Of a stretch of 64,000 bases of DNA, positions 18,349 to 35,600 are shown piece after piece. The stretch lies in the NCBI GenBank assembly GCA_035513155.1, contig DATKCO010000022.1, positions 18,117 to 82,116 on the forward strand. The letters are read 5' to 3'. Below the pieces are notes generated by a model. That model was not told where the DNA came from, ran no database searches, and was given only the letters and a program-made list of their open reading frames with translations. Source of the DNA: Gemmatimonadota bacterium (GTDB taxonomy: Bacteria > Gemmatimonadota > Gemmatimonadetes > JACCXV01 > JAHWKZ01). Position numbers and translations under genes: made by a program. The stretch's first letter is position 1. Each line of letters begins with the position of its first letter.

Positions 18349-18351
18349 CGG

Positions 18352-19529: not shown

Positions 19530-20157
19530 CTCCGTCCCGCCCGCGCACCTCCGTGACATCCTCCATGAGATCCGACGCCGCGGGGGCGAGGCCGAGCGCC
19601 ACCTTCACCGGGTGCTCGAACTCTTCCCGCGAGCGAGGGCCGATCCACTCCTTGACGACCTGGCCGTCCTTGATGAGGAGCGAGGTGGGAAGCCACGGCG
19701 AGAGCTCGTACGCCTCGAGCATCTGAGGCGTGCCGATGACCGAGGGATAGCTCATCGCGATCCCGACCGCGAACTCGCGCGAGTCCCGCGGCATGTCGTT
19801 CACCGTCACGCCGAGGACCATGAACCCCCTTGGACCGTAGGTCTCGTGAAGGGCCATCAGGTCGGGGATCTCGACCTTGCAGGGACCGCACCACGAGGCC
19901 CAGAAGTTCATCAGGATGACGGGGACCGAGTCGAGGGCGGCGAGCGTCAGGGTGTCGCCACCCAGGGTCTCGAGCTCGAACGATGGCGCCTCGCGGATCG
20001 CCTCGAGGGCCGCCCCCCCGGGCGCGCCGGCCGCTCCCCCGTCCGCCCGGGCGTCGTGCTCCCGTCCGCAGCCGGTCACGAGGCCCGCGACGAGGAGCGT
20101 TCCGAGAAGGAGGCGAACGATGGAAGCTGTCGTGAGCATGGACGGGAAATGTACCAT
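19519..20157 (-). CDS. TlpA/ResA-like thiol:disulfide oxidoreductase lipoprotein
   Basis: Lipobox LVAGLVTGC and a thioredoxin fold with FWASWCGPC. Alternative ATG at 20139. Confidence 0.85.
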   Translation of the reverse strand: MVHFPSMLTTASIVRLLLGTLLVAGLVTGCGREHDARADGGAAGAPGGAALEAIREAPSFELETLGGDTLTLAALDSVPVILMNFWASWCGPCKVEIPDLMALHETYGPRGFMVLGVTVNDMPRDSREFAVGIAMSYPSVIGTPQMLEAYELSPWLPTSLLIKDGQVVKEWIGPRSREEFEHPVKVALGLAPAASDLMEDVTEVRGRDGDGR

Positions 20158-20193
20158 TCCCGGGGGCGATGCGAAAACCGGGCCGGAGGCGGA

Positions 20194-20901: not shown

Positions 20902-23171
20902 TGGTTCCCCAGCGCCTGAGCCGCCTGCTTCCGGACCTCCGGGTCCTCGTCCTTGAGGAGCTCGATCAGCATGTCGTACGCGATCGGGTCGTCCATCTCG
21001 GTCAGCGCCCAGATGGCGGTCTTCCTCACCTCCTTGTTGGCGTCCCGGAGCAGCGGCCGGAGGGCGGGAGCGGCGCTCGGGTCCTCGATCTCCCCGACCG
21101 CCCAGGCCGCTGTCTTCCGCACCTCGGCGTTCCCGTCCCGGAGCGCCGCGATCAGCGCCTGGGGCGCCCGCGCCGGCTGGATCTCGCCGATCGCCCAGGC
21201 CGCGGTCTTCCGTACCTCGGCGTTGTCATCGGCGAGCGCCTGGGCGAGCGCGGGAACGGCCTCGACGCTCTCGATCTCGCCGATCGCCCAGGCGGCGGTC
21301 TTCCGCACTTCGGCGTCGGAGTCCGACAGGGCGCCTGCGAGCGCGTCCACCGCGGCCTCGCTCTCGATCTCGCCCAGCGCCCAGACGGCCTTGCGGCGGA
21401 CGTCGACGTCCGCGTCCCGGACCGCCGGGATCAGCCACGGGACCGCCTCCTCGCTCTCGATCTCGCCCAGGGCCCAGATCGCCATGCGGCGGACCTCGAC
21501 GCTCGAGTCGCGGAGCGCGGCGCCCAGCGCGGGCACGGCCTCCTCGCTCTCGATCTCGCCCAGCGCCCACGCCGCCATCGAGCGAACGTCGGGCGAGGCG
21601 TCGTTCCGCACAGCCTGCGAGAGTGCCGGCACCGCCCGCGGGCTCTCGATCTCGCCCAGGGCCCACGCGGCCATCTTCCTCACGCCCGCGTCGGCGTCGT
21701 TCGCCAGGGCCCGGACCAGCGCGTCGACCGCCCGGGGATCGTCCAGGCCGCCCAGCGCATGGGCGGCCGTCTCCCGCACGTCGGCGTCCGGGTCCCCCAT
21801 GGCCGTCAGGAGCGCGGTCACCGTGCGCGGGTCGGCGCCCGCTTCCCGCTTCGGGTCCTTCCCCGGCTCGGCCTGGATCGGCCCCATGCCGTCGAGCGCC
21901 GTCTCCGAGTCGAAGTCGGCGGAGGTGTCGAACCCGGAGCTCGAGTCGACGCTCTCGCCGGACGGGGCGAGCCGCTCGGTCCACCCCTCCGCCGGGTCGA
22001 CCCGGATCGGCTCGTCCGCGCTTTCCGCACGCTCGGCGACGAGCTCCTCGGCCTCGAGCGACGGCCGAGCGGGCGCCATCGCGGCGAGCGGGAGGACGAC
22101 GAGCGCGAGCGCCGCCGCCACCGCCGCCTTCCGTCCCGGGGTCAGCGAGTGCCGCGCCACACCGGGCTCGAGGATCGCCAGGAGGCGGCCCTCGAAGCTC
22201 GATCTCTGGGCCATGGGCACCGCCGCGACCGGCGCGCGTCCCCGACCCGCCGCGCGGACGATGTCGAGCAGGTGCGTCGCGTACTCGGAGGCCCGGGTGC
22301 CCGCTCCGAGGACGAGGTCGTCGCAGGCCCGCTCGCTCTCGTGGCGCAGGCGGCGGGCTGCGATCCAGGCGAGGGGGTGGAACCAGTACAGCGAGCACGC
22401 AACCCACGCGACGAGGTGGGTGGCGAGGTCGCCCCGGCGGACGTGCGCGAGCTCGTGGAGGAGGACCGCCTCGCGGCGCTCCTCGTCCCACGCCTCCGAT
22501 TCCAGCGGCAGGACGACCGCCGGCCGGATCACCCCGCAGGTCACGGGCATCACCGCGGCGTCGCTCCGGACCACCCGCACGGCGGTCCGCAGGTCCAGTC
22601 GCTCCGTCACCCGCCCGAGGGGCAGGAGCCACGCCGGTCCCGAGAGCGGCTCGGCGCGACGCGCCAGTCGCCACATCCACGCCATCCCGACGAGGATCCG
22701 GCCGAGGACGAGCGCGCCGATGGCGAGCCAGGCGTAGAGCGCGAGCCGCCACGGGTCGTGCGGGAGACCGAAGCGGGAGCCGCCGTCACCGGACGCCGGC
22801 CCCCAGGGCTCCGGCGCGTCGATGGCGCCGGCGGAGAGCGAAGCGGGTCCGCCGGGCTCCTCGACGGCGGCGCTGACCGGAGCGCTCATCGGCCAGTTGG
22901 CCGACGAGCGCGACGGCTCGGCCACCGGGGTCGTCGCGGTCGTCGGCGCGGGAGTCTCGATCGCCGCCCCTCCCCATCCGGCGGGAAGGATGGACATCCT
23001 CCACGGCACCGCCAGGGTGACGAGCGGGATCGCGACGACGCCGGCCAGGGCCGCGCTCCACACGGCGTGCCGGGCGGCGGCCGAGGTCCCGCGCATCGCG
23101 GACGTGACCCCGAAGGCGGCCAGGAGGAGCAGGGTTCCCTTGACGAGCGATCCGACGAGGACGGATTCCAT
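20898..23171 (-). CDS. BlaR1/MecR1-like M56 peptidase with a C-terminal array of about 10 HEAT repeats
   Basis: N-terminal TM helices, HELAHVRRGD (HExxH) and ESERACDD, typical of M56 signal transducers. After a Pro/Ala/acidic linker the last ~310 aa are 31-aa repeats (consensus about VRKTAAWALGEIESEEAVPALAQAL.D.DAE). Confidence 0.85.
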   Translation of the reverse strand: MESVLVGSLVKGTLLLLAAFGVTSAMRGTSAAARHAVWSAALAGVVAIPLVTLAVPWRMSILPAGWGGAAIETPAPTTATTPVAEPSRSSANWPMSAPVSAAVEEPGGPASLSAGAIDAPEPWGPASGDGGSRFGLPHDPWRLALYAWLAIGALVLGRILVGMAWMWRLARRAEPLSGPAWLLPLGRVTERLDLRTAVRVVRSDAAVMPVTCGVIRPAVVLPLESEAWDEERREAVLLHELAHVRRGDLATHLVAWVACSLYWFHPLAWIAARRLRHESERACDDLVLGAGTRASEYATHLLDIVRAAGRGRAPVAAVPMAQRSSFEGRLLAILEPGVARHSLTPGRKAAVAAALALVVLPLAAMAPARPSLEAEELVAERAESADEPIRVDPAEGWTERLAPSGESVDSSSGFDTSADFDSETALDGMGPIQAEPGKDPKREAGADPRTVTALLTAMGDPDADVRETAAHALGGLDDPRAVDALVRALANDADAGVRKMAAWALGEIESPRAVPALSQAVRNDASPDVRSMAAWALGEIESEEAVPALGAALRDSSVEVRRMAIWALGEIESEEAVPWLIPAVRDADVDVRRKAVWALGEIESEAAVDALAGALSDSDAEVRKTAAWAIGEIESVEAVPALAQALADDNAEVRKTAAWAIGEIQPARAPQALIAALRDGNAEVRKTAAWAVGEIEDPSAAPALRPLLRDANKEVRKTAIWALTEMDDPIAYDMLIELLKDEDPEVRKQAAQALGNQ

Positions 23172-23173
23172 GG

Positions 23174-23563
23174 CTACCTGCCTTCCTTTCGGGCCTCTTC
23201 GATGCGCTCGGCGAGCCTCTCGAGCTCGGCCGGCGAAAGGCCGGTGTCGGACATGCGCAGGAGCGCGACCGCGGCCTGCTCGGCCGAACCGCCGAAGAAC
23301 GTGGTCACGATGTGCTGGAGCGCGTTCTTGCGGGCGCGCTCCGGCGCGACGGCCGGATAGTAGACGTACTTGCGGCCTTCTTCCTTGTGATGGAGCCGGC
23401 CCTTTTCCTCCAGGACCCGCATGGTGGCCCGGACCGCGGAGTAGCTCGGCGGGTCGGGCATCTCGTCCTGGACCTCCTGGACGGTGGCCTTGCCGCGCCG
23501 GTACACGACGTCCATGATCTGTCGCTCGCGCGGGCTCAAGCCGTGGGGGGCCTTTTCGCTCAT
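23174..23563 (-). CDS. BlaI/MecI/CopY family transcriptional repressor
   Basis: 129 aa. Winged-helix N-terminus LSPRERQIMDVVYRRGKATVQEVQDEM...YSAVRATMRVLEEKG and a C-terminal dimerisation helix. Confidence 0.9.
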   Translation of the reverse strand: MSEKAPHGLSPRERQIMDVVYRRGKATVQEVQDEMPDPPSYSAVRATMRVLEEKGRLHHKEEGRKYVYYPAVAPERARKNALQHIVTTFFGGSAEQAAVALLRMSDTGLSPAELERLAERIEEARKEGR

Positions 23564-23611
23564 GCGTCCTCCATCGGAATCTGGTCGTGAATCGGGGTCC
23601 GATCCGTGAAT

Positions 23612-23625
23612 GCTAGAATTCTAGC
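23612..23625. promoter_or_regulatory. Perfect 14-bp palindrome, candidate BlaI-type operator
   Basis: GCTAGAATTCTAGC lies about 50 nt upstream of the repressor gene and covers the predicted -10. Confidence 0.5.
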
Positions 23626-23647
23626 AGATTCCGTCGCTCGCTGTCAA
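23618..23647 (-). promoter_or_regulatory. Candidate promoter of the blaI-like operon
   Basis: Minus strand: TTGACA (23642-23647), 18 nt, TAGAAT (23618-23623). The -10 is embedded in the palindrome. Confidence 0.45.
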
Positions 23648-23656
23648 CCCCCGGCC

Positions 23657-23686
23657 TTGACCGGTCCGACGACCCGATGGTAGCGT
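23657..23686 (+). promoter_or_regulatory. Candidate promoter for the divergent lipoprotein gene
   Basis: TTGACC (23657-23662), 18 nt, TAGCGT (23681-23686), with TG immediately upstream (extended -10-like). Confidence 0.3.
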
Positions 23687-23717
23687 CGTTCCCTTCCGTG
23701 TCCCGAATCCAGGAGGA

Positions 23718-24089
23718 ATGTCCGTGCGCTCGATTCTCTGCCTGACCGCCGCCTGCTCGCTGCTCCTCGCGGGATGCGAACCCCCCGAGCCCGAGCAGGC
23801 GATGATGCCGCCCGCGCCTTCCGACACCGTCGCGCCCGTGCGGCAGCGGGCGACCGGGCCTGACGCGTTCGACGGGTGCTACTACCAGGGGCAGCGATAC
23901 AGTGTCGGCGGAGTCCGGGCCCAGGACGGGGTCCTGAAGAAGTGCGTCGACGAGGGGCGCTGGCAAAACGTGGACGGTTTCGGCAACCTGATCCCCGAGG
24001 ACCCCACGGTCGAGGACACGCTCTCGGTGTCGGACACCCTCGCGGTCCCGGACACGACCGACACGGCCTCCACGACCGGATTGCCCTAG
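23718..24089 (+). CDS. Small lipoprotein, hypothetical
   Basis: MSVRSILCLTAACSLLLAGC has a lipobox. AGGAGGA lies immediately upstream, and its spacing favours the in-frame GTG at 23724. I recognise no family. Confidence 0.6.
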   Translation: MSVRSILCLTAACSLLLAGCEPPEPEQAMMPPAPSDTVAPVRQRATGPDAFDGCYYQGQRYSVGGVRAQDGVLKKCVDEGRWQNVDGFGNLIPEDPTVEDTLSVSDTLAVPDTTDTASTTGLP

Positions 24090-25210
24090 CCGACAGGATC
24101 CTCCTTCGACTCCGCGAACAGCGGTCCCAGCGCGCTTCCCTCGGCCACCGCGCGCTCGAGGTCCAGCAGCCGCCGCTTCCGCCAGAGGCCCCCGCCATAG
24201 CCCGTCAGGTTCCCGTCGGCGCCGATCACCCGGTGACACGGGATCACGATCGCGATCCGGTTGTCCCCGTTCGCCCGCGCGACTGCTCGCACCGCCTCGG
24301 GACGCACCCCCAGCCGGCGGGTCTGCTCGCCGTAGCTGCGGGTCTTCCCGTAGGGGATCGCTTGGAGCCCCTCCCACACCGCGCGCTGGAACTCGCTTCC
24401 GGGGGTCTCGAGCGGAAGCGTGAACTCCCGCAGCTCGCCGGCGAAGTAGGCGTCGAGCTCCTCGCCGGTTCGACGGATCACGTCGTTGACGCCCGGAACC
24501 GCCACCCGCCCGGTCCCCGCCCTCACCCGCTCGATCTGGGTCTCCAGCATGCGGCGGTCGGCGAACTCGAGCAGGAAGAGCGCGGTCTCCGAGGCGCCGG
24601 CGATCATCGGGCCCAGCGGGGTCGTCAGCCGGTGGAGGACGATCGGCTCCGTGGCGGCGGCGCGGCCCGGTGTCGTCCCGGTCGTCCGCACGAACGCCTC
24701 GTGGAACCCGCTCAGCGACTCGTAGCCGCTCTCGTACGCCGCGCTCGCCGGCCCCGCGCCGTCCTTGAGGCGGCCGATCGCCCGCCCGAGCCGCCGGGCT
24801 CGATGATAGGCATGGAACGTCATCCCGTGGTGGCGCTTGAACCAGCGCCGGACGCGCTCGGGCTCGAGGCCCCGCTCCCGGAGGTCCGCGTCCCTCCAGC
24901 GGCGCGAGGGATCCGCCTCGACCGCGTCGAGGAGCCCGGCGATCCATTCCGGGGCCGCGCCGTTCGCCATCGGCCGGCAACGCTTACAGGGGCGGTAGCC
25001 TGCGGTCAGGGCGTCGCGAGCGCCGGGAAAGAACTCCACGTTCCCCCGGGCCGGCTTCCTGGCCGGGCACGTCGGACGGCAGAAGATCCCCGTCGTCGTG
25101 ACGCCGGTGACGAACACCCCGTCGTACTCCGGGTCGCGCCGCTCGAAGGCGTCCCACATCTCGGCGGGCGGGGGGAGGGTGGCGTGCTCCATGCCCTCAG
25201 CGTAGCGCAT
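24086..25210 (-). CDS. ada: Bifunctional Ada: methylphosphotriester-DNA methyltransferase / AraC-type regulator / O6-methylguanine-DNA methyltransferase
   Basis: N-Ada zinc motif GIFCRPTCPARKP...CKRC, an AraC HTH region, and C-terminal PCHRVIG (MGMT active site). ATG at 25210 (alternative 25192). Confidence 0.85.
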   Translation of the reverse strand: MRYAEGMEHATLPPPAEMWDAFERRDPEYDGVFVTGVTTTGIFCRPTCPARKPARGNVEFFPGARDALTAGYRPCKRCRPMANGAAPEWIAGLLDAVEADPSRRWRDADLRERGLEPERVRRWFKRHHGMTFHAYHRARRLGRAIGRLKDGAGPASAAYESGYESLSGFHEAFVRTTGTTPGRAAATEPIVLHRLTTPLGPMIAGASETALFLLEFADRRMLETQIERVRAGTGRVAVPGVNDVIRRTGEELDAYFAGELREFTLPLETPGSEFQRAVWEGLQAIPYGKTRSYGEQTRRLGVRPEAVRAVARANGDNRIAIVIPCHRVIGADGNLTGYGGGLWRKRRLLDLERAVAEGSALGPLFAESKEDPVG

Positions 25211-25269
25211 CGAGGATTGCGGTTCCACCGGAGAATCGACGCGGAATTCCGCCGGCCTCCCTTCGGTCG

Positions 25270-25914
25270 TCAGCGGCCACCGAGGCGGTACGTCACGCCG
25301 GCCGAGACGCCGGCCAGGTGGATCGCACGGCGATCGCCGGTCGGAACCGAACCGTCCCCGATGTCCGCGCCCAGGCGTTCCTCCTGGAACACGACCCAGT
25401 CGGTGAACGTCACACGGGCTCCCCAGGGCGAATCGGGTACGCCGCTCCAGGCGACCCCCAGGGCGAGCGGCACGAGCCAGTCGGTCTCGGTCTCGTCCAC
25501 GCCCCGCACGTCCAGGCGGCTCGTGATCCCGCCGATCCCTACGGCTCCCACGAAGTCGAGTGCGCCCCCCGACGCGACCCGACGCTCGACGCGCACGTGG
25601 TAGAGGTAGCTCGTCACCTCCGTGTCCAGCCACGCGACTTCGAGGCCGCAGCCCAGGCCCCACTGCGGCGTAAGCTCCGCGAGAGCGATTCCTCCCGCCA
25701 GCAGCCGGGTTTCATCCAGGGGGTGGAGACCCTCGAGCGACTGCCGTCCCAGGACGCCGGTCGCGTGGAGGTCGATCTCCCAGGGCGGCCTGGAGCGCTC
25801 CTGGGCGACGGCCGGGACGGCGACAGCCAACGCCAGGAGGGCGACCGCTACCGATCCGATTCTGCCGGATTTGACGGATCTGATCCTACGCGTGCACGCG
25901 AGACTCCACTTCAC
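25270..25914 (-). CDS. Putative outer-membrane beta-barrel protein
   Basis: A GTG at 25914 gives the signal peptide ...GSVAVALLALAVAVPAVAQE. Alternating beta-strand pattern with a C-terminal ...GVSAGVTYRLGGR. Weak family assignment. Confidence 0.5.
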   Translation of the reverse strand: MKWSLACTRRIRSVKSGRIGSVAVALLALAVAVPAVAQERSRPPWEIDLHATGVLGRQSLEGLHPLDETRLLAGGIALAELTPQWGLGCGLEVAWLDTEVTSYLYHVRVERRVASGGALDFVGAVGIGGITSRLDVRGVDETETDWLVPLALGVAWSGVPDSPWGARVTFTDWVVFQEERLGADIGDGSVPTGDRRAIHLAGVSAGVTYRLGGR

Positions 25915-25979
25915 GAATCTAATTGTCACGGTCGGAGACTGGAAGCCTGGGCGAGTCGGGGGATCGCGACGGGATTGAC

Positions 25980-26852
25980 CTACCAGTCGTGGAACTTGTA
26001 CCCGAGGCAGCGGTGGACGAGGCGGGCGATGACGAAGTCGGGGGCGTGGAGGCCCTCGATCGGGGCCAGCTCCACGACGTCCATCCCGACCACGTTCTTC
26101 TCCTGGAACACGTAGCCGAGGAACCGCATCGTCTCGTGCCAGAACCCGCCCCCGGGCTCGGGGGTGCCGGTGGCGGGGACGAGCGCGGGGTCGAGGAAAT
26201 CCACGTCGAACGTGATATACACGGTGTCGGTCAGCGTGTTGAGGACCGTGTCCATCCATTCCTCGCCGTGCGCGATCCGATGGGACCAGAAGACCGGCAG
26301 ATCCTCGTCCTGGGCGAACTCCGCCTCCTCGACCGAGACCGCGCGGATCCCGACCGGCACCGCCGGCACTCCGAGCTCGAACACCCGGCGCATCACGCTC
26401 GCGTGGGACCAGGGCGTCCCCTCATAGCTCTCGCGCAGGTCGGCGTGGGCGTCGAGCTGGAGCACGGAGAGGTCCTCGAAGGCAGCCCGGGCGGCCCGCA
26501 CGGGCGCCGTCGTCAGCGAGTGCTCGCCGCCGAGGAACAGGGGGAACTTGCTGTCCCCGTAAAGCCGCGCAGCCACTTCCTCCAGCTCGGCGAGAAACAC
26601 GACCGGGTCGGAATGCGAGACGTCGACGGCGGGCGTCGTGTGGATCCCGCCCTTCCGGTACGGCTCCTCCCGGAGCACCTCGTCGTAGAGCTCCACGTAG
26701 CCCGAGGCCTCGAGGATCGCCGCCGGCCCCTTCCCCGTTCCCGCCCCGTACGACACCGTCGCCTCCCACGGCACCGGCACCACCACCCCGCGCGCGTCCT
26801 CGTACCGCGCGTCGGTATCCGAGAGCCCCAGGAAGTTCTTCGCTTCGGGCAT
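25980..26852 (-). CDS. speB: Agmatinase (arginase/ureohydrolase family)
   Basis: GGEHS, QLDAHADL, TFDVDFLDP and the C-terminal VELAP-type motif arrangement of ureohydrolases. Confidence 0.9.
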   Translation of the reverse strand: MPEAKNFLGLSDTDARYEDARGVVVPVPWEATVSYGAGTGKGPAAILEASGYVELYDEVLREEPYRKGGIHTTPAVDVSHSDPVVFLAELEEVAARLYGDSKFPLFLGGEHSLTTAPVRAARAAFEDLSVLQLDAHADLRESYEGTPWSHASVMRRVFELGVPAVPVGIRAVSVEEAEFAQDEDLPVFWSHRIAHGEEWMDTVLNTLTDTVYITFDVDFLDPALVPATGTPEPGGGFWHETMRFLGYVFQEKNVVGMDVVELAPIEGLHAPDFVIARLVHRCLGYKFHDW

Positions 26853-26877
26853 GCTAGACGACTCCCTCCCAACCGTG

Positions 26878-26999
26878 GAGGTCGATCAAAACGGGTCAGA
26901 TGCAAGGCGCGCGACGAGGGAGAGCCGAGGCGTACGACTCGTACGCCGCAGGCTCGCACGAGGAGCGCAACGCCGCAGATGGCCCGTTTTCATCGACCT
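26878..26999 (+). repeat. Copy B of the ~120-nt imperfect-palindrome repeat
   Basis: Arms GAGGTCGATCAAAACGGG / CCCGTTTTCATCGACCT. Blocks AAGGCGCGCGACG (26904-26916) and GAGGAGCGCAACG (26960-26972). Hairpin GGCGTAC-GACTC-GTACGCC (26929-26947). The right end overlaps the pdaD stop (26998-27000). Confidence 0.8.
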
Positions 27000-27546
27000 A
27001 GTCGATCAAAACCGCAGCCGCCACCACCGTCGTCCACAACCCACCCTTGTCCCCCACCGCCGACTGCGTGACGTTCCGGGTCGTCACGATCTCGTTGGAG
27101 ATCTTCCACTGCTCCTTGCGGGCGTCCCACGCGGCCTCGGGGTCGAAGTCGACGCCCATCGCCGTCGCCAGCATCTGGGCCGCCAGGTCCTCGGCGTAGT
27201 CGCCCGCGATCTTGTCGGTCTGGCCGTAGCCATGGTGCTCGGAGAGGTACCCGTAATGGTCCGGATCGCGCGGGATCGCCACGCCGATCGACGACGCGAT
27301 CAGCCGGTGCGGCTCGTTGGTCGCCGTCTCGGCGACCACGGTGAACAGCACCTGGCCGGCCCGCAGCTTCTTCACGCCCTCCTTGCCCGACACCATTCGG
27401 CACTGCGGCGGGAAGATGCTCGAGACCCGGACGATGTTGTACTCGGCGATCTTCGCGTCCCGAAGCGCGAGCTCGAACGACGCCAGCTTCTCGCGGTGAC
27501 GACCCACTCCGTGCGTCAGGAACATCTCCTTGGCGACGAATGGCAC
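26998..27546 (-). CDS. pdaD: Pyruvoyl-dependent arginine decarboxylase
   Basis: 182 aa. LTHGVG...[24 protein letters not shown] (self-cleavage serine context), typical PdaD length and motifs. Confidence 0.9.
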
Positions 27547-27559
27547 CGGCCTCTCCTCC

Positions 27560-28588
27560 TCAGCTCTGGGGACTCTTCAGGCGGATCGACTCGTCGTCTC
27601 CGCCGGGCTCTCCGGGCGGGATCGCGCCGGGGACCTGCATGGACTCCAGCTCCTTCTGCATCAGGGACCGCTGCTCCTCCTCGTAGCGAGCGAACAGCGA
27701 GTCCAGCCGGGGATCGTTGGGCAGGGAGGGCTCCATCACGATCAGATCCCCCTCCACCCCGGCTACCTGCGCCGCCTCGTCGGGGCCGCCCGCGAACTCG
27801 AGCCGCGCCCGTCCCAGGAACCGGCCGAGGTCCCCGGCCGCCACGATCCACGTCCCCGGCGACGCCTCCTCCGGGGCGTTCAGGGTCTTGCCGCCGTGCC
27901 CCGAGACGATGAGGTCGATGCCCGGCACCATCTGCGCCAGCGCGCGGTCCCCCTTGTAGGAGAGATGGCTGAGCGCGACAACGAGGTCGACGTCCTGCCG
28001 CTCGAGCTCGGCCACGCCGCGCCGGGCGCTGGCGACGATGTCCTCCTCGACGACCACGCTGTCCCGCATGGCGGCGTTCAGCAGGATCGTGGGGTTGAAC
28101 AGCCCGATGAGGCCGATCCTCCGGCCGCCCTTCTCCACCACCAGCGTCTTGTTCCCGAGACCCTCGAGGCCGACGACGTCGTAGTTCGTGTGGACCCAGG
28201 CGATGGGATTGTCGGTCACGATCTCGCGCACGTAGGCGGGCCCCTGGTTGAGGTCCCACTCCCCGAGCGTGAACGCGTCGTACTCCATCAACCGCATGGC
28301 GTCGACCATCACGCGGCCCAGCGCCGCGCCGTAGGCGCTCTCGCCGCCCGTGAAGTCGCCCGCGTCGACGAGCAGGATCGGCACGTCCGACTCGCGCCGC
28401 AGCGAGTCCACCACCCAGGCACGCTTCGCGAGCCCGCCAGTCGAATCCGCGCGACAGCCGCAGTCGTCGAAGTACCCGTACCCGTCCGCCGTGTGGAGCA
28501 CCAGCAGCTCGTCCGCCGGCCCTCCGCCACACGCGAGCAGGGCGATGGTCAGGATCGGCGCCCCGACCCGTAGGGCGTTTCGAATCAT
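27560..28588 (-). CDS. Metallophosphoesterase/5'-nucleotidase-like lipoprotein with divergent catalytic motifs
   Basis: The ATG at 28588 is preceded by GAGGAGG. Lipobox [11 protein letters not shown]. Calcineurin-like layout ([24 protein letters not shown]), but GEWDL stands where GNHE/D is expected. Confidence 0.7.
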
Positions 28589-28655
28589 GCCCCTCCTCGG
28601 TTCATGTGGGTTCGAGCTTGAGGGGGCTCGAGCCCGACCCGGTCTTAAACGCACG

Positions 28656-28777
28656 AAGGTCGCTCAAAACGGCTCAGATTCAAGGCGCGCGACGACGGCC
28701 GAGCGAGGCGTACTGAAAGGTACGCCGCAGTGAGTGCCGAGGAGCGCAACGCCGAAGATGAGCCGTTTTCAGCGACC
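28656..28777 (+). repeat. Copy C of the ~120-nt imperfect-palindrome repeat
   Basis: Arms AGGTCGCTCAAAACGGCTCA / TGAGCCGTTTTCAGCGACC. Blocks at 28682-28694 and 28739-28751. Hairpin GGCGTAC-TGAAAG-GTACGCC (28707-28726). Ends 3 nt before the stop of the PorV-like gene (28780). Confidence 0.8.
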
Positions 28778-28779
28778 GC

Positions 28780-29787
28780 CTAAAACCGGAATCCGACCGC
28801 GAAGTGCGTCTCGTCACCCAGCTCCGACACCGAAACCTCCCGCGCGATGTCCGCCTCGAACCGGTCGTACCGGATCCCGATCCCGAACGAGCCGCCGGTC
28901 GCGCGGTCGGCCTCGCCCGAGTCCACATAGGGGTTGTCGATCATGACGATCCCGCCGCGCAGGACGAGCACCTCGTAGACCATGACCGTGGCGCCGCCGT
29001 GGAAGCTCGAGTTCGCGAGCTCGCGCAGGTCGCTCTCCGCGTCGAACGACAGGCCCACGTCGTATTCGGGCGGCAGGCCGAAGAAGCTCTCCGGCTTCGC
29101 TTCCACGCCCACCCGGACGCGGCTGGGCAGGTTGTCGCTGTCCCCGCCGCCGGAAGTGGCGTCGGTTTCGTCGTAGCTGAAGTCCCCGCCCAGGTTGCGC
29201 ATCGAGACGCCGAACGAGACCGGCACCGAGCCCGGGCGCGGGAGGTAGACGAGACCGATGTCGAACGCCGCGCCGCTGCCCGACGTCACGCCGAGATCGG
29301 AGTTGTACCATTTCGCCGTGACCCCGTACGACAGGCGGTCCCGCCAGTGGTTCGCCCAGGTGAGCCCCACCGCCCAGTCGCTGACCTCAGCCGTCCCCAC
29401 CACATCGGGCGACGTCTCGGTCAGCGGGATGTCCCCGTAGTCCTGGTAGATCAGCTGCGCGGCGAAGGTCCCGTAGGGAGAGACCACCGCGCCCGCCACG
29501 TAGTTGCCGTCGTATCCCGCGTCCTCCGCCCCCTCGATCCGGCTGAACGTGAGCGCGCCGCGCTCGAGGCCGTCGACGGTGGCCGGGTTGTACGGCATCG
29601 ACTGGAGCTCGCCTCGCGTCGCCACGACCGCGCGCCCCTGGCCGATGGCGCGCGCGCCGACCGGCAGCACCAGCCCGACGATCCCCCCGTCCGACGTGTT
29701 GCCGCTCGTCTGGGCGCGAGCGGAAGCTCCCGGCCAGGAGACCAGGGCGAGCAGGCAAAGCGCGGAGACGGCAAGGCGGCCGGGCAT
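28780..29787 (-). CDS. PorV/PorQ-like outer-membrane protein
   Basis: Signal peptide MPGRLAVSALCLLALVSWPGASARAQ. The LPVGARAIGQGRA...YNPA motif is typical of the PorV/PorQ (UPF0164-like) family. Beta-barrel ending in ...HFAVGFRF. An alternative ATG at 29832 would form an ATGA overlap with the upstream stop. Confidence 0.7.
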   Translation of the reverse strand: MPGRLAVSALCLLALVSWPGASARAQTSGNTSDGGIVGLVLPVGARAIGQGRAVVATRGELQSMPYNPATVDGLERGALTFSRIEGAEDAGYDGNYVAGAVVSPYGTFAAQLIYQDYGDIPLTETSPDVVGTAEVSDWAVGLTWANHWRDRLSYGVTAKWYNSDLGVTSGSGAAFDIGLVYLPRPGSVPVSFGVSMRNLGGDFSYDETDATSGGGDSDNLPSRVRVGVEAKPESFFGLPPEYDVGLSFDAESDLRELANSSFHGGATVMVYEVLVLRGGIVMIDNPYVDSGEADRATGGSFGIGIRYDRFEADIAREVSVSELGDETHFAVGFRF

Positions 29788-29828
29788 GAAGGCATGAATC
29801 TGCCCGGCGAAGAGGGACCCTGCAACCA

Positions 29829-31310
29829 TCATCGCAGCTTGAGCGCCCGCACCACGGACGTCCCCTGGGAGGTGGTCAGGCGGATCACGTAGACCCCGGA
29901 CGGGACCTCGCGACCGTTCAACGAGCGACCGTTCCAGGCCACCGTATAGGTGGCGGGCTCGCGGTGACCGGCGGCCAGCCTCGTCACGACCTGACCCATC
30001 GCGTCGAAGACCTGAAGGCTCACGTCGCCCCCCGCCACGATCGAATACTCGATCGTCGTCTCGTCGGTGAACGGGTTGGGGTAGTTCTGGAGGACGACGT
30101 TGAGGTTCCCGGGTCCGGGCTCCGCGGGTCCGGCCGGAAAGTCGAGCAACACCGGCAGGCCGGCGATCCGCTCGTCGTACGCTTCGCGCACGGCCCGCAC
30201 CGCGGCCACGAGGTCGGTCAGGAACGGCGCGTCGGCCGCGAGCTCGGGGCTCGAGGGGAGGAGCTGCTCGGGGACCTCGCCGACCGCTTCCGCCCACACC
30301 CAGGCCATCGCCGCGCGCGCGACCTCGTCCTGCGGCAGATCGGCGCCGCCCATGCCGATCAGGACCCGCAGGTCGAAGAACGGCGAGGCGAACGTGGGGA
30401 TGCGGATCCCCGTCAGGGCCTCGTACTGGCTGGAGTCGGTCTGCGGCACCGGCTGAACGCCCGGACGACCGTCCCCGCTGAGCTGGGTCATGTTGATCTC
30501 GGCGCCCGGGTTGTCGAGCGGCACCAGCGCCAGGAAGCCGGGCCGTCCGGTGAACGCCTCTTCCTCGAAGTCGAAGTCCCAGACCAGCAGGACCGGCTCG
30601 CCGTCGATCTCCAGCGGGGCCGCCGTGTCGTCGGTCGGCTCGCCGATGTCGGGATCCAGCACGAGACCGGTCCACATGTCGCGGATCGTGTATCCGGTCT
30701 CCCGGATCCGGCCGGAGATGTTCAGGATGTCCCACTGGAACACGACCGCCGTGTCGAGGTCCGGCTCGGTGAACGCGAACGATCGCTGCCGGACCTCGAC
30801 CCCGAGCGGGATCGAGGGCCGCGCGATCGGGCCCACGCTGAAGCGGTCGTCGAACACGGTGAACAGCTCCTGGGCCGCGATCGGCTCGTCGGGGAAGATC
30901 TCCTGATCGCTCGCCACGGTCGTGTCCAGCACGCGGAACCGGGGGTCGTTGGGACTCTGCCCCACCACGCCTTCGATGTACTCGTTCTCGCTGGTCGATT
31001 GGGGGTTGTAGCCGATCGTGGTGATCGTGTCGGGAACCCCGTTGGCGTCGACGTCGCCGATTCCGCCGATCCAGAGACCCGCACCGAACAGGTACCGGTT
31101 CGCGGTGCCGCGCGGGAAGTTGCCCGGCGGAGTCGTCTCGTTGAGCCGCAGGCCGTAGGAGCCGCGGTTGGTCACACGCAGGAATACGTCGTTTACGTCG
31201 TGGGCGGCCAGCGAAGCGACCGAGGGTGAGATCTCGCGCTGACCGAGCGCCGTGGCGGGCAAGGACGCGAGCGCGCCCAGGACGACGATCGAGACGGTCA
31301 GTCGTGGCAT
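29829..31310 (-). CDS. Secreted protein with a T9SS-type C-terminal sorting domain
   Basis: Signal peptide MPRLTVSIVVLGALASLPATALGQ. The C-terminal ~80 aa LQNYPNPFTDETTIEYSI...VSLQVFDAMGQVV...GVYVIRLTT...RALKLR matches the Por-secretion CTD pattern. The ATG at 31310 lies 13 nt inside the 3' end of fur. Confidence 0.75.
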   Translation of the reverse strand: MPRLTVSIVVLGALASLPATALGQREISPSVASLAAHDVNDVFLRVTNRGSYGLRLNETTPPGNFPRGTANRYLFGAGLWIGGIGDVDANGVPDTITTIGYNPQSTSENEYIEGVVGQSPNDPRFRVLDTTVASDQEIFPDEPIAAQELFTVFDDRFSVGPIARPSIPLGVEVRQRSFAFTEPDLDTAVVFQWDILNISGRIRETGYTIRDMWTGLVLDPDIGEPTDDTAAPLEIDGEPVLLVWDFDFEEEAFTGRPGFLALVPLDNPGAEINMTQLSGDGRPGVQPVPQTDSSQYEALTGIRIPTFASPFFDLRVLIGMGGADLPQDEVARAAMAWVWAEAVGEVPEQLLPSSPELAADAPFLTDLVAAVRAVREAYDERIAGLPVLLDFPAGPAEPGPGNLNVVLQNYPNPFTDETTIEYSIVAGGDVSLQVFDAMGQVVTRLAAGHREPATYTVAWNGRSLNGREVPSGVYVIRLTTSQGTSVVRALKLR

Positions 31311-31729
31311 TCTTCGCACAGCCCGTAGATCTCCAGCTTGTGTCGCGAGGGACGAAAGCGATGCAGCGCGGCGATCTCTCTCTCCAGCCGGTCGACCGCG
31401 TCGGACTCGAACTCGATCACCTTGCCGCACCGGGTGCAGACGAGATGCTCGTGGCGCGGGCGCGCGGGTCGAGCCTCGTAGCGCCGGAACCCTTCCCCGA
31501 AATCCTGCTCTCGGGTCAATCCCGCCTTCGACAGCAGGTCCAGCGTACGATAGATCGTGGCCTTGCCGATCGACTCCCCCCGGGCCTCCAGCGCCTCGCG
31601 GATCTCCTCCGCGGAGATGTGGCGGTGGGTGCCGAACAGCACCTCGGCGACCCGTAAACGCTGGGGCGTGACCGGATGGTTGTATGCGCGGAGATATTCC
31701 CGAAAGCGCTCGACGCCGTCGGGCGTCAC
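31298..31729 (-). CDS. fur: Fur family transcriptional regulator
   Basis: Winged helix (ISAEEIREALEARGESIGKATIYRTLDLL), HEHLVCTRCG and C-terminal GLCEEC metal-site cysteines. The GTG start forms a GTGA overlap with the upstream ORF's stop. Confidence 0.9.
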   Translation of the reverse strand: MTPDGVERFREYLRAYNHPVTPQRLRVAEVLFGTHRHISAEEIREALEARGESIGKATIYRTLDLLSKAGLTREQDFGEGFRRYEARPARPRHEHLVCTRCGKVIEFESDAVDRLEREIAALHRFRPSRHKLEIYGLCEECHD

Positions 31730-32169
31730 GGCCCGTCACCGGCGGGAGCCATGAGCTCCGCCAGGCGATCGAGCGATCCCTCTCGTCCCGCGCCCCCCGT
31801 CAGCGGCACCTCGCGATACAGCGCCCCTTCGACTCCGCAGCGGTCGATGAACTCGGACAGGATCTCGGGCAGGACCGCTTCGGGAAACCGCGCCCGCCGT
31901 ATGAAATCGTGGGCCGCGGCTCGCTCTCCTTCGGCACGGCCCCCGACGGCCACCATCTCCAGCCGATCGCCGCCCAGGCGCTTGGTGACCAGCGCCAGCG
32001 TGAACGAGACGTCCCGCCGCTCTACCGGCTCGAACACGTACGCGCGGTCGAGCGCCTCCCCTTCCTCCAGCCCCACGGCGGCCTCGAGCGCGGCCACGAG
32101 CGCGGCGCGGGCGGCCTCCGCGTCCGAGGGAAGCTCGGGCGCGGCCGGGCCGTCCCGGGGGTCGTCCAT
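31726..32169 (-). CDS. Hypothetical protein co-transcribed with fur
   Basis: Coding-like composition and translational coupling to fur. I recognise no family. ATG at 32169 (the track start, GTG at 32214, is an alternative). Confidence 0.5.
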   Translation of the reverse strand: MDDPRDGPAAPELPSDAEAARAALVAALEAAVGLEEGEALDRAYVFEPVERRDVSFTLALVTKRLGGDRLEMVAVGGRAEGERAAAHDFIRRARFPEAVLPEILSEFIDRCGVEGALYREVPLTGGAGREGSLDRLAELMAPAGDGP

Positions 32170-32174
32170 CCGGG

Positions 32175-32204
32175 TTGACACGGGCCGGGGGTCTCGTCTA
32201 CTCT
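32175..32204 (+). promoter_or_regulatory. Candidate promoter for the DUF4870-like gene
   Basis: TTGACA (32175-32180), 18 nt, TACTCT (32199-32204). Confidence 0.3.
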
Positions 32205-32222
32205 CCGCGCTCACCGCCGGCG

Positions 32223-32251
32223 AATCTCGCGGCGCGCATCTGCAGGGTCAA
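32223..32251 (-). promoter_or_regulatory. Candidate promoter for the hypothetical-fur-T9SS cargo operon
   Basis: Minus strand: TTGACC (32246-32251), 17 nt, GAGATT (32223-32228). Confidence 0.25.
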
Positions 32252-32286
32252 CCGCGGCCCCATCCCGAACGGACCCCCTCGTCGCC

Positions 32287-32628
32287 ATGTACGCCTCGCG
32301 AGCGGAAAGCCCGAATCGATCGATTGCCGCGGTCGCGTACCTGCTGGGGCCGGTGACCGCCGTCGCCTGCATCCTGCTCTACCGGGACGATGCCTACGTC
32401 CAGTTCCATGGCTGGCAGTCGCTGCTCCTGAGCGCGTTCGTGGCCGTCGCCGTGGCCGCGCTCGACCTCGTTCCCCTGCTCGGGCTGGGGCTGGTCTTCT
32501 TCCTGTTCGTGGGGGTCGTGCTGCTGACCGTCCTGCTCGTATGGCAGGCGTTCCGCGGCCGCTGGTTCCTGCTCCCGCTCCTCGGAGACGTCGCGCTGGA
32601 GCTGGCGAGCCGCCGCTGGCGGGGCTGA
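32287..32628 (+). CDS. DUF4870-like small membrane protein
   Basis: IAAVAYLLGPVTAVACILLYRDDAYVQFHGWQSLLLS is the characteristic N-terminal pattern. It is followed by two further TM helices. Confidence 0.7.
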   Translation: MYASRAESPNRSIAAVAYLLGPVTAVACILLYRDDAYVQFHGWQSLLLSAFVAVAVAALDLVPLLGLGLVFFLFVGVVLLTVLLVWQAFRGRWFLLPLLGDVALELASRRWRG

Positions 32629-32652
32629 GCCGTGGACCCTCCGGGGTCGGTC

Positions 32653-35600
32653 TCAAGCGCTGGCGGCCAGCGCCTCCTCGCTCTCCTCCCGCTCCGGCTC
32701 CTCCGCTTCCCGCCGTTCCTCCTGCGTCTCCCCTCCGTGCAGGGATACCGACACCAGCGCGCTCACGCCGGGCTCCTCCATCGTGATCCCGTAGAGATAG
32801 TCCGCTTCCGCCATCGTCCGCTTGTTGTGGGTGATGACGACGAACTGGGTCTCCTCGCTGAAGTGACGGATCATCCGGAGGAACCGGCTGACGTTGGCGT
32901 CGTCCAGCGGCGCGTCCACCTCGTCGAGGATGCAGAACGGGGAGGGCTTCACCAGGTAGATCGCGAACAGGAGCGCCAGCGCGGTCAGCGCCCGCTCGCC
33001 GCCCGACAGCAGGCTGATGTGCTGGACCCGCTTGCCGCGGGGGCTGGCGACGATCTCGATCGGGGACTCGAGCGGATCGTCGGGGTTCTCGAGCCGGATC
33101 TCCGCGTGGCCCCCCTCGAACAGCGTCTTGAACGTGACGTCGAGGTTCCCCCGCACCGCCTCGAACGTCTCGACGAACAGCTCCCGGGCCGTCGCGTTGA
33201 TCGTGCGGATCGCCCCTTCGAGCTGACGCTTCGCCTGGACGAGGTCGTCCCGCTGGCGCACGAGGAACTCGTGTCGCTCCGCCTCCCGCTCGTACTCCTC
33301 CACGGCGAGCATGTTGACCGGCCCCAGGTTCGCGAGCTTGCGGCGCACCTCCTCCAGCCGGGTCCTTAGCTCCACCTGGGGCAGCCCGATCTCCCCCTCC
33401 GCCAGCGGATGGGCCGCGAGGAGCTCGTCCAGCGGGCGGTCGTATCCCTCCGCCAGGTGGTCGAGCAGGACCTGGCGGCGGAACCGTAGATCCTGCCGCG
33501 CGAGCGCCAGCTCGTGGCGCTTCTCGGTCGCGGCCTCGTGCTCGCGCCTGAGCTCGCGCAGCTCGGACTCGAACCCGGTCCGCCGGGTCTCGGCCTCCCT
33601 GAGCGCCTCGCCGCTCTCGACGAGCTGCTTCTCGATCCCGTCGAGCTGCGCGTAAAGCGACTGGATCTCGACCAGCGTTGCCTCGCGCTCCTCCTCCAGC
33701 GCGGCGTTCGCTTCCTCCAGCCGGCGGCGCTCCGCTACCCGCTCGGCCCGGCCGCTCGCCAGGCGGTCCTCTTCGTCGGCGAGGTGCTCAAGCTCCCGCT
33801 CGACCGCCCGGAGCGCCGCCTCCGCCTCGGTCCGCTCGAGCTCGATGGCGTGACGCGCGGAGATCCGCTCGGCCCGCACCTCCTCGTGGCGCTCGATCGC
33901 CGCCCGGACGTCGTGCATCCGGGCGCGGGACCGCTCGAGGTCGGCCTCGATCTCCTCCACCGTCTCGGCGATCGCGCGGCCGGCCAGGGTGGCCCGTTCC
34001 TGCGCCTGGCGCTGCTCGTCCGCGTGAGCCTCGATCTCCTCCACGCGGCGGGCCGCCTGCCGCGCCTCCTGCTCGGCCACGACCGCGGCCTCGCGCGACT
34101 CGCGGTAGCGGGCTTCGGCCTCCAGCGCCTCCGCCTGCGCGGTCGAGAGCGCCGCCTCGGCGGCCGACACGGCGGCCTCCGCGGCCGCGGCCTCCCGCGC
34201 CGCGTCGGCGGCGTCGGCTCTGCGATCCTCGAGCTCGGCCTGCGCCTCCTGCAGCAGCCGCCGGCGCGCGAGCAGCCCGCCGTCCCCCTCGTCCCCGGCC
34301 GTGCGCCACCGTCCGGTGGGCTCGATCAGGGTGCCGTCCATGCCGGCGATCACGTAGTGGCGCGCGGCCTCGGGCGACGCGGCGAGCGCCTCCCGGCAGG
34401 CGAGCGCGCGCCCCCGGTCGGCGACCACGAGGAGCCGCGCGAAGAGCGGAGCGATGGCCTCGCCGAGTGCTGGATCCGCCGTCCACCGGAGCGCCCGGTC
34501 ACCGCGGGCCACGACGTGCGCGGCGGCCGCGTCGGGGATCTCGGGTGGAGGACCGACCGCGATCAGGGCGGCCACGAGGAAGTCCGCGCGACCCAGTCCG
34601 CCGGCGGCCAGCCGGTCCGCCCCGCGGGACGCCCCGGCCAGATCGGCGGCCACGATCGCGTGGCCCAGGCTCTCCAGGTACCGGTCGAGCGCGCGCTCGA
34701 ACGCGGGCTCGGCCGCCTCCACCGCGCGCGGCAGCGCCCCGGCCAGGCCATCGACCGGAGCCGCGCCGGCGAGGAGCGCGCGGGCCCCCTGGCCGTACCC
34801 CTCGAAGCGCGCTTCCATCGCCCGTAAGGTCTCCAGCCGACCCGCCGCCGCGTGCTCTCCGGCGCGGGCGGCCGCGAGAGCTTCGCGCGCGTCCTCGAGC
34901 GCGACCACCGCGTCGCGGACGGCCGTCTCCAGGCCATCGATCCGCGAGCCCCGCTCGCCACGATCCACGTCGGCGCCCTCCATTGCGCTCCGAGCCGCCG
35001 CGTCGCCTTCGGCGGCGGCGGCCGCCTCGCGGCGACGGTCCTCCAGCTGGTCCTCGAGCGCGGAGAGCCGCTCGGCGGCGCTCTCCGCGGCGCTCGCCTG
35101 CCGCGCCGCGGCCTGGCGCGCCTCGCCGAGCCGCTCCTGCTGATCCTCGATCTCCCCCACCAGGTGCGCCCGCTCCGCGCGGAGCTCGGCCTGGTGCGCC
35201 TCCTCGGAGCCGACTTCGCCCTCGGGCCCCAGCCGGCCGCCGACGCCCTTCAGCCGCTCGGCGGCCACCTGGCGATCGACCTCCAGATTGGCGCGTCGCT
35301 CCTCCAGGTCGTCGGCCCGCGAGGTCGCGCGGGCGTCTTCGACGCCCAGGCCCTCCAGCCGCTCCACGTTGTGCCGCAGGGTCTCGCCGGTGACGAGCTG
35401 CGAGTCCTCCCGGCGCGAGATCCGGCGCCTCAGTCCCTCGGCCTGCTCCCGCACCCCGGCCTCGCGCCGCCGCGCCTCGACGATCTCGAGCTCGAGCGTC
35501 TCGAGACCGGCCTCGCGATCCCCCAGCCGGGCGGCCCGCTCGGCCTCGAGCGTCTCCAGCCGCTCCAGCTCCTCCACCACCGGGCCCTCGCGACCTCCCA

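Follow-up and report, generated by a model that had tools for sequence, protein, structure and literature searches.

The imperfect palindrome at positions 28657 to 28777 of a 64,000-nucleotide (nt) stretch of Gemmatimonadota DNA (contig DATKCO010000022.1, positions 18,117 to 82,116 of the forward strand; this whole stretch is referred to here as the window) is a member of a large family of interspersed elements of about 120 nt. The family is a new and widespread one of structured palindromic repeats, apparently uncatalogued. Its members form long irregular hairpins with covarying helices around a purine-rich core, they abut the stop codons of genes on the opposite strand, they show a marked strand bias, and they have been gained or lost between genomes. 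Overall, we see about an even chance that the family represents an element that is or once was mobile and works as a folded single strand, with the purine-rich core as a protein-binding platform and the selected fold lying antisense to the abutting gene.

A dispersed family of structured repeats

Repeat finding and a covariance model located the copies in the window, all of them on the plus strand and spaced 8.2, 1.8 and 30 kb apart:

Copy A, 18655-18773, plus strand: 3' end abuts the TAG stop codon (18774-18776) of a gene for a DsbD-type membrane protein (18774-19559, minus strand).
Copy B, 26879-26999, plus strand: lies between genes for a pyruvoyl-dependent arginine decarboxylase (26998-27546, minus strand) and an arginase-family protein (25980-26852, minus strand).
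Copy C, 28657-28777, plus strand: complete element, imperfect palindrome.
TAG stop codon of the gene upstream of copy C (gene at about 28780-29800), 28780-28782, minus strand: 2 nt from the base of copy C.
Copy D, about 58948-59063, plus strand: 3' end abuts the TAG stop codon (59064-59066) of an H+-pyrophosphatase gene (minus strand).

The covariance model found exactly these four copies, with E values from 6e-30 to 8e-17, the next match being unrelated (E = 0.31). Copy C scored 132 bits (E = 1e-28) and copy D, the outer 5' arm of which has decayed, scored 81 bits; the last two bases of copy B are overlapped by the arginine decarboxylase stop codon. The predicted fold of copy C has a free energy of -72.5 kcal/mol, compared with -42.2 +/- 3.3 kcal/mol for shuffles of the same sequence (z = -9.2), and the z-scores for copies A and B were -9.3 and -6.1, respectively.

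A scan of one genome per species, using as its pattern the two conserved sequence blocks described below, returned at least 111 loci. Most of those listed lie in Gemmatimonadota metagenome-assembled genomes, with at least 9 to 12 loci in several single genome bins, and the others listed represent Rokubacteria, Binatia, and Delta-, Alpha-, Beta- and Gammaproteobacteria; chance accounts for about a dozen matches, which fall inside coding sequence. A metagenome scan anchored only on the arms of the hairpin returned 120 loci, of which about 75 to 90 are real elements. No Rfam 15 family matched the window or 25 related loci at the gathering threshold, and permissive E values gave only matches at chance level (E of about 0.2 or worse). 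The block sequences are absent from the literature searched, in which we found no description of such repeats in Gemmatimonadota or Burkholderia, and a plasmid collection yielded no match to the Gemmatimonadota element itself. Two Halorubrum loci (L009:3329-3454 and L076:5552-5677) contain both blocks, of 11 to 13 nt, within a covarying stem in a repeated noncoding region. We set these aside as candidate members of the family: the covariance model recovers neither, and they represent a different repeat of uncertain homology.

Compensatory changes maintain a long hairpin

A preliminary description of the window copies, made from the letters alone, had pointed to paired changes that preserve the helices, and all of these are present in the sequence. 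The outer stem GTCGCTCAAAA/TTTTCAGCGAC of copies A and C is replaced by GTCGATCAAAA/TTTTCATCGAC in copy B, and AAAATG/CATTTT in copy A corresponds to AAAACG/CGTTTT in copies B and C. The inner arm reads GGCTCA..TTC/GAA..TGAGCC in copy C and GGGTCA..TGC/GCA..TGGCCC in copy B, where it includes a T.G wobble, and the apical stem reads GGCGTAC/GTACGCC in copies A to C and GGCGCAC/GTGCGCC in copy D. A C.C mismatch in the outer stem was also remarked on at that stage. In copy C it is formed by C28665 opposite C28770, and across the family 72 of 89 copies retain it.

Covariation in a larger alignment had been named in advance as the decisive check, and the result was clear. In 89 copies aligned with MAFFT, with no structural input, RNAalifold predicted 34 pairs, 28 of them with compensatory changes (28 to 30 of 35 to 38 by other counts). 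On the structure set out below, 94.8 to 95.0% of cells were paired, compared with 80.0 to 80.5% in 500 shuffles and 31 to 45% when partners were slid, and there were 416 to 434 double-change cells, compared with about 100 in shuffles; none of the 500 shuffles reached any of these measures. Among 95 independently ascertained metagenome copies, 94.2% of cells were paired, compared with 80% in shuffles, in an alignment that was fitted to the covariance model and so leans toward the model's structure. The covariation in both sets bears out the earlier proposal of a folded single-stranded nucleic acid under structural selection. The element is, as had been suggested, more than a generic terminator hairpin, and by a wide margin. 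In copy C the parts of the fold are as follows:

P1, 28658-28664 with 28771-28777, plus strand.
C.C mismatch, 28665 opposite 28770, plus strand: adjoins the A/U-tract helix.
P2, 28666-28676 with 28759-28769, plus strand.
First tandem-G.A helix, 5' side GATTC, 28677-28681, plus strand: faces GAAGA at 28754-28758 as G.A, A.G, T-A, T-A, C-G.
Block 1, AAGGCGCGCGACG, 28682-28694, plus strand: its GCGC (28687-28690) is paired to the GCGC of 28744-28747, and its GA-C-GA lies opposite GA-G-GA in block 2.
Apical stem-loop, GGCGTAC-TGAAAG-GTACGCC, 28707-28726, plus strand: seven pairs, with compensatory variants in all.
Block 2, CGAGGAGCGCAACGCC, 28738-28753, plus strand: repeats block 1 in direct rather than inverted orientation, with 10 of 13 positions the same.

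From its base, the hairpin comprises P1, the C.C mismatch, the A/U-tract helix, the tandem-G.A helix, a GCGC helix flanked by GA-S-GA/GA-S-GA, an inner helix, and the apical stem-loop, beside which a G.A/A.G juxtaposition with a bulged C is found. Columns 31-124 and 43-123 of the 89-copy alignment covary. Two short derivatives of 74 to 78 nt (L017:4037-4110 and L005:2501-2578) keep the arms and have lost everything between block 1 and block 2, and their junctions, AAGGC|CCGCCGCAG and AAGGCGC|ACGACGCAG, resemble deletions between the two direct-repeat blocks.

A purine-rich core of tandem G.A juxtapositions

The two best-conserved blocks had been described as facing each other without being complementary. 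They do face each other, but their noncomplementarity is only partial, since the GCGC of one pairs with that of the other and C28693 pairs with G28741. In the same way, the helices do preserve structure, as had been claimed, but the asymmetric internal region is not an unpaired loop preserved in sequence only. Its unpaired positions are almost all purine opposite purine, with 5'-GA-3' facing 5'-GA-3', and this arrangement indicates that the region is an irregular helix, made up of covarying Watson-Crick pairs together with tandem G.A/A.G juxtapositions, rather than an open loop. There are three to four such tandem juxtapositions, and G.A/A.G is invariant or nearly so at four sites. Columns 54.111 and 57.108 are G.A and columns 55.110 and 58.107 are A.G in 87 to 89 of the 89 copies. 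Column 69.97 is G.A in 82 and column 70.95 A.G in 88 of them. Column 29.126 is G.A in 67 of the 89 copies and column 30.125 A.G in 56, with Watson-Crick replacement in about 10%.

Invariance of the blocks in the 89-copy alignment is a consequence of the search pattern, which fixed them. Among the arm-anchored metagenome copies, only about 5% have the exact blocks, and the remainder are subfamilies that share the skeleton AGGCG .. GA-S-GA-G .. GAGGCGTAC-loop-GTACGCCGCAG .. C-GA-S-GA .. CAACG. The exact block sequences therefore mark a single subfamily, and variability of the blocks, which had been put forward beforehand as a finding that would count against the earlier claim, is half borne out: the exact sequences vary in the wider family, and the skeleton is kept. 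Within the blocks lie the GCGC:GCGC helix, which covaries, a C-G pair that is exchanged for G-C in some copies, and the tandem G.A/A.G juxtapositions. Copies recovered by the covariance model without the pattern deviate from the blocks in a compensatory manner: L033 has GGCACGC with GCGTAAC (G-C to A-T), L084 has GGCGGGC with GCCCAAC (C-G to G-C), and L074 and L085 have GAGGAG/CGACGA in place of GACGAG/CGAGGA (C-G to G-C). Pairs within the former blocks likewise covary in the metagenome set, where three of them occur as CG 42/GC 19, as GC 49/CG 9/AU 6/UA 3, and as CG 50/GC 25.

The more stable strand is antisense to the abutting gene

On the plus strand of the element, the helices contain more G.T and T.G pairs than A.C and C.A juxtapositions (94 compared with 34 among the genome copies, and 161 compared with 21 among the metagenome copies). 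The plus strand is the more stable of the two in 166 of 183 copies (mean, 6.8 kcal/mol), and on the opposite strand each tandem G.A becomes a pyrimidine-pyrimidine mismatch. The plus strand of the window has a negative GC skew, and most of its genes are on the minus strand; a replication- or transcription-linked C-to-T bias would, given this skew, yield A.C rather than G.T on the plus strand. Because the excess of G.T is thus opposite to that expected from mutation bias, we read the asymmetry as selection for folding of the plus strand. Unexpectedly, on this reading the strand kept foldable is the one antisense to the abutting gene.

Elements lie immediately past stop codons

In all four window copies, the 3' end lies 0 to 3 nt from the reverse complement of a TAG stop codon of a real minus-strand gene. 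The product of the gene abutting copy C has no assigned function and ends in ..RF*; its coding frame is supported by the list of open reading frames (ORFs) and by the phase of G+C content at third codon positions, and its orthologues at empty sites, where the element is missing, have the same C terminus. In the genome set, 48 of 91 copies have an antisense gene end no more than about 10 nt from their 3' end, counting confidently called genes from a crude gene caller that misses some. The same is true of 44 of 75 metagenome copies, whereas a sense gene end is found at the 5' side in only 8 of those 75. The distance to the stop codon, usually 0 to 5 nt, peaks sharply at 2 to 4 nt past the hairpin, and in about one in five cases the stop codon is supplied by a TCA of the element itself (TGA as the gene reads it), mismatched C included. 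There is a mild enrichment of TAG stops (odds ratio, 2.4; p = 0.005), and adjacent genes have T-rich final codons (odds ratio, 15.8; p = 3e-7): 10 of 41 such genes, compared with 9 of 450 others, contain at least three T among the 6 nt that precede the stop. This agrees with a preference for A+T-rich targets or with an excess of C termini of the outer-membrane type. Genes preceding the element tend to end in Ile, Phe or Leu (..RF* or ..LF*), as at 28783-28791 in the window and at L089, L062 and L139.

The neighbors are housekeeping genes, including cox, tuf and nusG, and the element is often found between such partners of conserved operons as FtsA/FtsZ, YbaB/RecR, cytochrome oxidase subunits III/IV, and arginine decarboxylase (PvlArgDC)/arginase. 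At several loci, convergent genes each have their own copy, arranged head to head (L030, L083, L085, L099, L102 and L109), and orientation must therefore follow the gene and not the replication fork. We accordingly rejected replication direction as the determinant of orientation, since convergent genes carry oppositely oriented copies. Copies in plus orientation also lie 2 to 6 nt upstream of tRNA genes (L066:367-500, L043:5043-5175 and L082:131-266), and in the isolate Microbulbifer sp. TYP-18 one such copy (L080:1981-2099) lies between two tRNA genes, between the 16S and 23S rRNA genes. These are the only contexts in which the selected strand is certainly transcribed. A consensus scan found no canonical intrinsic terminator in positions 14000 to 33000 of the window, copies included, compared with 4.7 +/- 2.1 in shuffles; the lineage may terminate transcription by other means.

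At L003:3197-3332 and L055:2173-2308 and in the right flanks of L119 and L160, the last 9 to 21 nt of the 3' arm are tandemly duplicated between the element and the stop codon, for example as CATCATCCTGC CATCATCCTGC. Such duplications suggest slippage or repeated insertion at that end. We also considered a small mRNA-sense ORF running from an ATG in the entering arm to a TGA in the exiting arm (34 codons in copy B). This was rejected because the "start" covaries with its pairing partner (CTG in 44 copies, ATG in 20, TTG in 12, GTG in 6), and because the copies do not maintain a common reading frame and their conservation lacks a period of three bases.

Persistence, gain and loss of copies

Copies A and B are found at the same junctions in genomes with flanks 76 to 84% identical (three syntenic Gemmatimonadota genomes). 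The orthologue of copy A in L014 shows several compensatory arm changes, and in the orthologues of copy B in L001, L022 and L024 the arms are kept and the inner helices differ. In four other Gemmatimonadota genomes (L236 to L239), the arginine decarboxylase-arginase spacers are 3 to 45 nt long and the B and C junctions both lack an element; one of the empty-site contigs belongs to the same assembly (DATLFH) as the family-carrying L054. Native C termini and stop codons are unchanged at the empty sites, and copies have therefore been gained or lost; they lie 0 to 2 nt after an intact stop codon. Within a genome, the maximum identity between copies is 0.79 to 0.94 and the median about 0.78, with no near-identical pair, and arm identity shows no correlation with identity of the inner part (r = 0.04). 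These results suggest an old family shaped by constraint or patchy gene conversion, and not a recent burst.

A target duplication of the IS630/IS5 type, TA or CTAG, was sought and in general not found. Copy B has CTAG on both sides (26854-26857 and 26998-27001) only if a nonconserved tail of 22 nt is counted as part of the element. In copy B and in 7 to 9 of 72 metagenome copies (L116, L119, L130, L132, L187, L196 and L221), a CTA precedes the TCAAAA of the 5' arm by exactly 32 nt, and the intervening 22 to 23 nt are not conserved; this spacing could be what is left of a target duplication, with a tail that is not conserved, or could reflect cleavage at a measured distance. Copy B also contains a 12-nt direct repeat, GTCGATCAAAAC: positions 26881-26892 of its 5' arm match the last 12 coding bases of the arginine decarboxylase gene, on the opposite strand (27001-27012). 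That the arms are copied from the target was rejected on the grounds that orthologues at empty sites show the gene end (..VLID*) to be native and that gene ends show no locus-specific homology to the arm of their own copy (5.56, compared with 5.66 in permutations; 41 copies). The match in copy B reflects either insertion beside a preexisting arm-like sequence or chance, the estimated chance of a 10-of-12 match between arm and gene end over 170 copies being about 0.006.

Related modules within mobile elements of Proteobacteria

In Betaproteobacteria genome bins, the module is found inside an element of about 300 bp that has terminal inverted repeats, CTAG/TA at both sides, and a second, diverged module (L073, about 745-1050; L113, about 2922-3180). 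Burkholderia cenocepacia has a 282-bp element (L235:1326-1607) with perfect 30-bp terminal repeats, TA on both sides, and two modules (61 and 34 bits), and on an Azotobacter plasmid a similar element adjoins an IS630 transposase gene. These are miniature inverted-repeat transposable elements, or MITEs, and we found no annotation of, or paper describing, TA-flanked MITEs of 282 to 300 bp that bear the module. Of the two modules per MITE, both have the same orientation in Burkholderia, and they have opposite orientations in the Betaproteobacteria genome bins. In Proteobacteria, therefore, the module is cargo of TA-targeting MITEs; in Gemmatimonadota it stands alone, without a MITE.

Possible roles of the element

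Given its fold, position and history, the element may be a mobile element that is non-autonomous, or may have descended from one and persisted for a long time; its general kind would be that of REP/REPIN, ERIC and Correia elements. It would land or survive 0 to 5 nt past stop codons, including between conserved operon genes, and its long irregular hairpin would work as a folded single strand. Since the selected fold is on the antisense strand, the purine-rich core would most likely be a platform for a protein specific to both strand and structure. This protein might be an enzyme that spreads or homogenizes the family via single-stranded DNA, or else a host factor acting on transcripts that run in the antisense direction; the reverse-complement copy in the mRNA would form a weaker hairpin that operons tolerate. 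A sequence-specific partner had already been suggested from the conserved blocks; the existence and nature of such a protein, the active form (DNA or RNA), and any benefit to the host are matters of inference. Several observations weigh against the interpretation as a mobile or formerly mobile element read through its antisense strand. There are no near-identical copies within a genome and so no sign of recent transposition, and the identities of the arms and of the inner parts are uncorrelated (r = 0.04), where simple copying and divergence would predict otherwise. No consistent target-site duplication was found in 75 + 89 copies. Positions are conserved over deep divergence in essential operons, which a host function fits as well as a selfish element does. 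The four plus-orientation copies beside tRNA genes or in the rRNA spacer break the orientation rule, and beside protein genes there is no direct evidence that the plus strand is single stranded or transcribed. Finally, no partner gene was found, nor any transposase or recombinase among 130 neighboring proteins, which was the extent of the search.

A bolder variant, which we hold at roughly one chance in four, is that the element is a strand-specific device that the host has retained and that works on the strand antisense to the abutting gene. It might be an RNA that serves, with a protein, as a one-way terminator or insulator, or a site in single-stranded DNA for a recombinase or nuclease, with the GA-rich irregular-helix module occurring in at least five bacterial phyla and also as cargo of IS630-type MITEs. 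If true, this would make the family a new class of structured nucleic-acid motif and not another selfish palindrome. Somewhat less probable, in our estimate, is a function in the mRNA itself, in which a hairpin in the 3' untranslated region or between cistrons protects against 3' exonucleases, attenuates transcription, or modulates ribosome release, as for REP and ERIC, the strand asymmetry being a by-product. REP hairpins stabilize upstream cistrons, and REPs within about 15 nt of the stop codon affect translation in Escherichia coli. Such a role agrees with a location 0 to 5 nt past stop codons and between cistrons of conserved operons, at positions conserved across genomes, with the fact that the minus-strand RNA still folds (about -61 kcal/mol), and with the lack of canonical intrinsic terminators in the 19 kb around the copies, where 4.7 would be expected. 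It is harder to reconcile with the pairing pattern, in that each G.U becomes an A.C mismatch and each tandem G.A a U.C/C.U mismatch in the mRNA sense; the 3- to 8-fold excess is in the wrong direction for selection on mRNA, and known mutation biases push the opposite way.

Alternatively, the plus-strand RNA might be a one-directional terminator or insulator, in which the G.U and G.A pairs make a strong, uninterrupted helix that, followed by UUUU, stops antisense or convergent transcripts at the gene border and the weak mRNA-sense form lets transcription pass. We think this improbable, less so than the next two ideas. The stabilities of the two strands differ in the required direction, a T.G recurs a few pairs from the U-tract (25 of 89 and 39 of 95 copies), the U-tract ends about 8 to 12 nt from the protected stop codon, and in head-to-head pairs between convergent genes each transcript meets its partner's plus copy. 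Yet about two-thirds of copies lie between codirectional genes, where no antisense transcript is expected, the U-tract is just four U and is paired with the A-tract, and plus copies are found 2 to 6 nt upstream of tRNA genes and in the rRNA spacer, where a terminator would be harmful. A site for recombination of single-stranded DNA, like attC or the hairpins of HUH (Y1) enzymes, with the strand that is bottom relative to the upstream gene folding and a recombinase reading the mismatches, seems to us more doubtful still. An attC-like start at the upstream stop codon, stems that keep structure and not sequence, a fixed mismatch, a length of about 120 nt, folding of the bottom strand, and the lack of target duplication expected for HUH enzymes all fit such a site; the TCAAAAC/GTTTTCA arms, which do not fit RYYYAAC/GTTRRRY, the housekeeping operon neighbors in place of cassette arrays, the stability of positions between genomes, and the lack of an integrase or Y1 transposase among the 130 neighboring proteins do not. 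Least probable of all, and by a long way, is a self-cleaving ribozyme or other catalytic or processing RNA on the plus strand, selected against in the orientation of the mRNA but tolerated where precursors of tRNA and rRNA contain it. A conserved, purine-rich, non-Watson-Crick core surrounded by covarying helices would suit a ribozyme, as would an orientation biased against the mRNA sense, with sense copies only in precursors that are processed anyway; against it, there is no Rfam ribozyme match, the hairpin is unbranched and lacks an obvious cleavage site, and the idea is pure inference.

Small palindromic repeats are common in bacteria, and few are understood. The present family is unusual in combining very strong covariation and a conserved non-Watson-Crick core with a strict rule of abutting stop codons with the fold antisense. 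Its copies persist at the same operon junctions over deep divergence, and it has relatives in several phyla, including the cultured and genetically tractable Burkholderia cenocepacia. Selection on a strand absent from the mRNA is hard to fit with the usual account of 3' untranslated hairpins, and it points to a protein partner, or else to antisense transcripts or single-stranded DNA having a role. The family would give RNA family databases a new motif, would aid intergenic annotation in Gemmatimonadota, a phylum that is abundant in soil and has few cultured species (PMC8779627), and provides a test case in which palindromic DNA is made functionally one-sided through G.U and G.A pairs.

A repeat array in a nearby gene

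Positions 20165-21816 of the window contain tandem repeats of 93 to 96 nt (10 units, 60 to 74% identical) within a minus-strand gene (20898-23171). The array encodes HEAT/PBS-lyase repeats of a 757-amino-acid protein with a BlaR1-type M56 peptidase domain.

Comparison with known repeats

By their defining features, REP, REPIN, classical MITE, attC and intrinsic-terminator sequences do not include this family. Like REP, BIME and REPIN sequences, the elements are dispersed intergenic palindromes, mostly at the 3' ends of genes, that form hairpins and are inherited vertically over long periods; a dedicated enzyme, RAYT, probably reads those sequences in the form of single-stranded DNA. REP units are 20 to 40 nt long and have a GTAG or CGTC tag (PMC3733652), which is terminal, along with a stem of 5 to 13 bp and a short loop. 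Here there is a single hairpin of about 120 nt without GTAG, and CGTC occurs only inside block 1, on the minus strand, and not at an end. A REPIN consists of two inverted REPs and goes with a single-copy RAYT gene flanked by them, whereas the conserved blocks here are direct repeats (10 of 13 positions) in the middle of the hairpin; we found no Y1 transposase or RAYT among the 130 neighboring proteins, the part of the genomes that was searched. Nor does this family, unlike REP, show a master sequence with many identical copies.

ERIC (IRU), Correia (NEMIS) and SPRITE elements are likewise imperfect palindromes of 100 to 150 bp that are transcribed within mRNAs and have orientation-dependent effects at the RNA level, and the SPRITE of Streptococcus pneumoniae resembles a terminator (PMC10969869). 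They are, however, MITEs with conserved terminal repeats and TA duplications, confined to narrow lineages, while the present family has covarying arms, no detectable duplication, a purine-rich core, an antisense orientation at stop codons, and relatives in several phyla. MITEs of the IS630/Tc1 type, TA-flanked, 282 to 300 bp long and with 30-bp terminal repeats, carry related modules in Burkholderia, Azotobacter and Betaproteobacteria genome bins, and the modules face either way in them, in the manner of cargo; the Gemmatimonadota element differs in being a single module with no separate terminal repeats and no TA duplication. Its arms do share GGNCGNTCAAAAYGG, but their variable positions covary, which indicates a structural constraint rather than one on sequence alone. 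Elements of the IS200/IS605 type have a hairpin read by a Y1 transposase and insert 3' of a fixed target of 4 to 5 nt; the lack of duplication and the strand-specific fold agree with this type, the distance between element and stop codon ranges from 0 to 7 nt, and no transposase was found among the neighbors. An intrinsic terminator is a short G+C-rich stem-loop with a run of U directly after it; the hairpin has only UUUU, paired with the A-tract, and its copies lie inside operons.

Integron attC sites also start at the upstream gene's stop codon, fold as the bottom strand, keep structure while stem sequence is free, and have conserved unpaired bases; chromosomal versions are, like this element, about 120 nt long. 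The attC boxes RYYYAAC/GTTRRRY, which in attC lie at the ends, are not present, the arms TCAAAAC/GTTTTCA agreeing only in the AAC/GTT core, which lies inside P1 and not at the ends, and the surroundings are housekeeping operons, with no cassette arrays and no integrase among the 130 neighboring proteins. Moreover, the center of attC is variable, whereas the center of this element is conserved in sequence.

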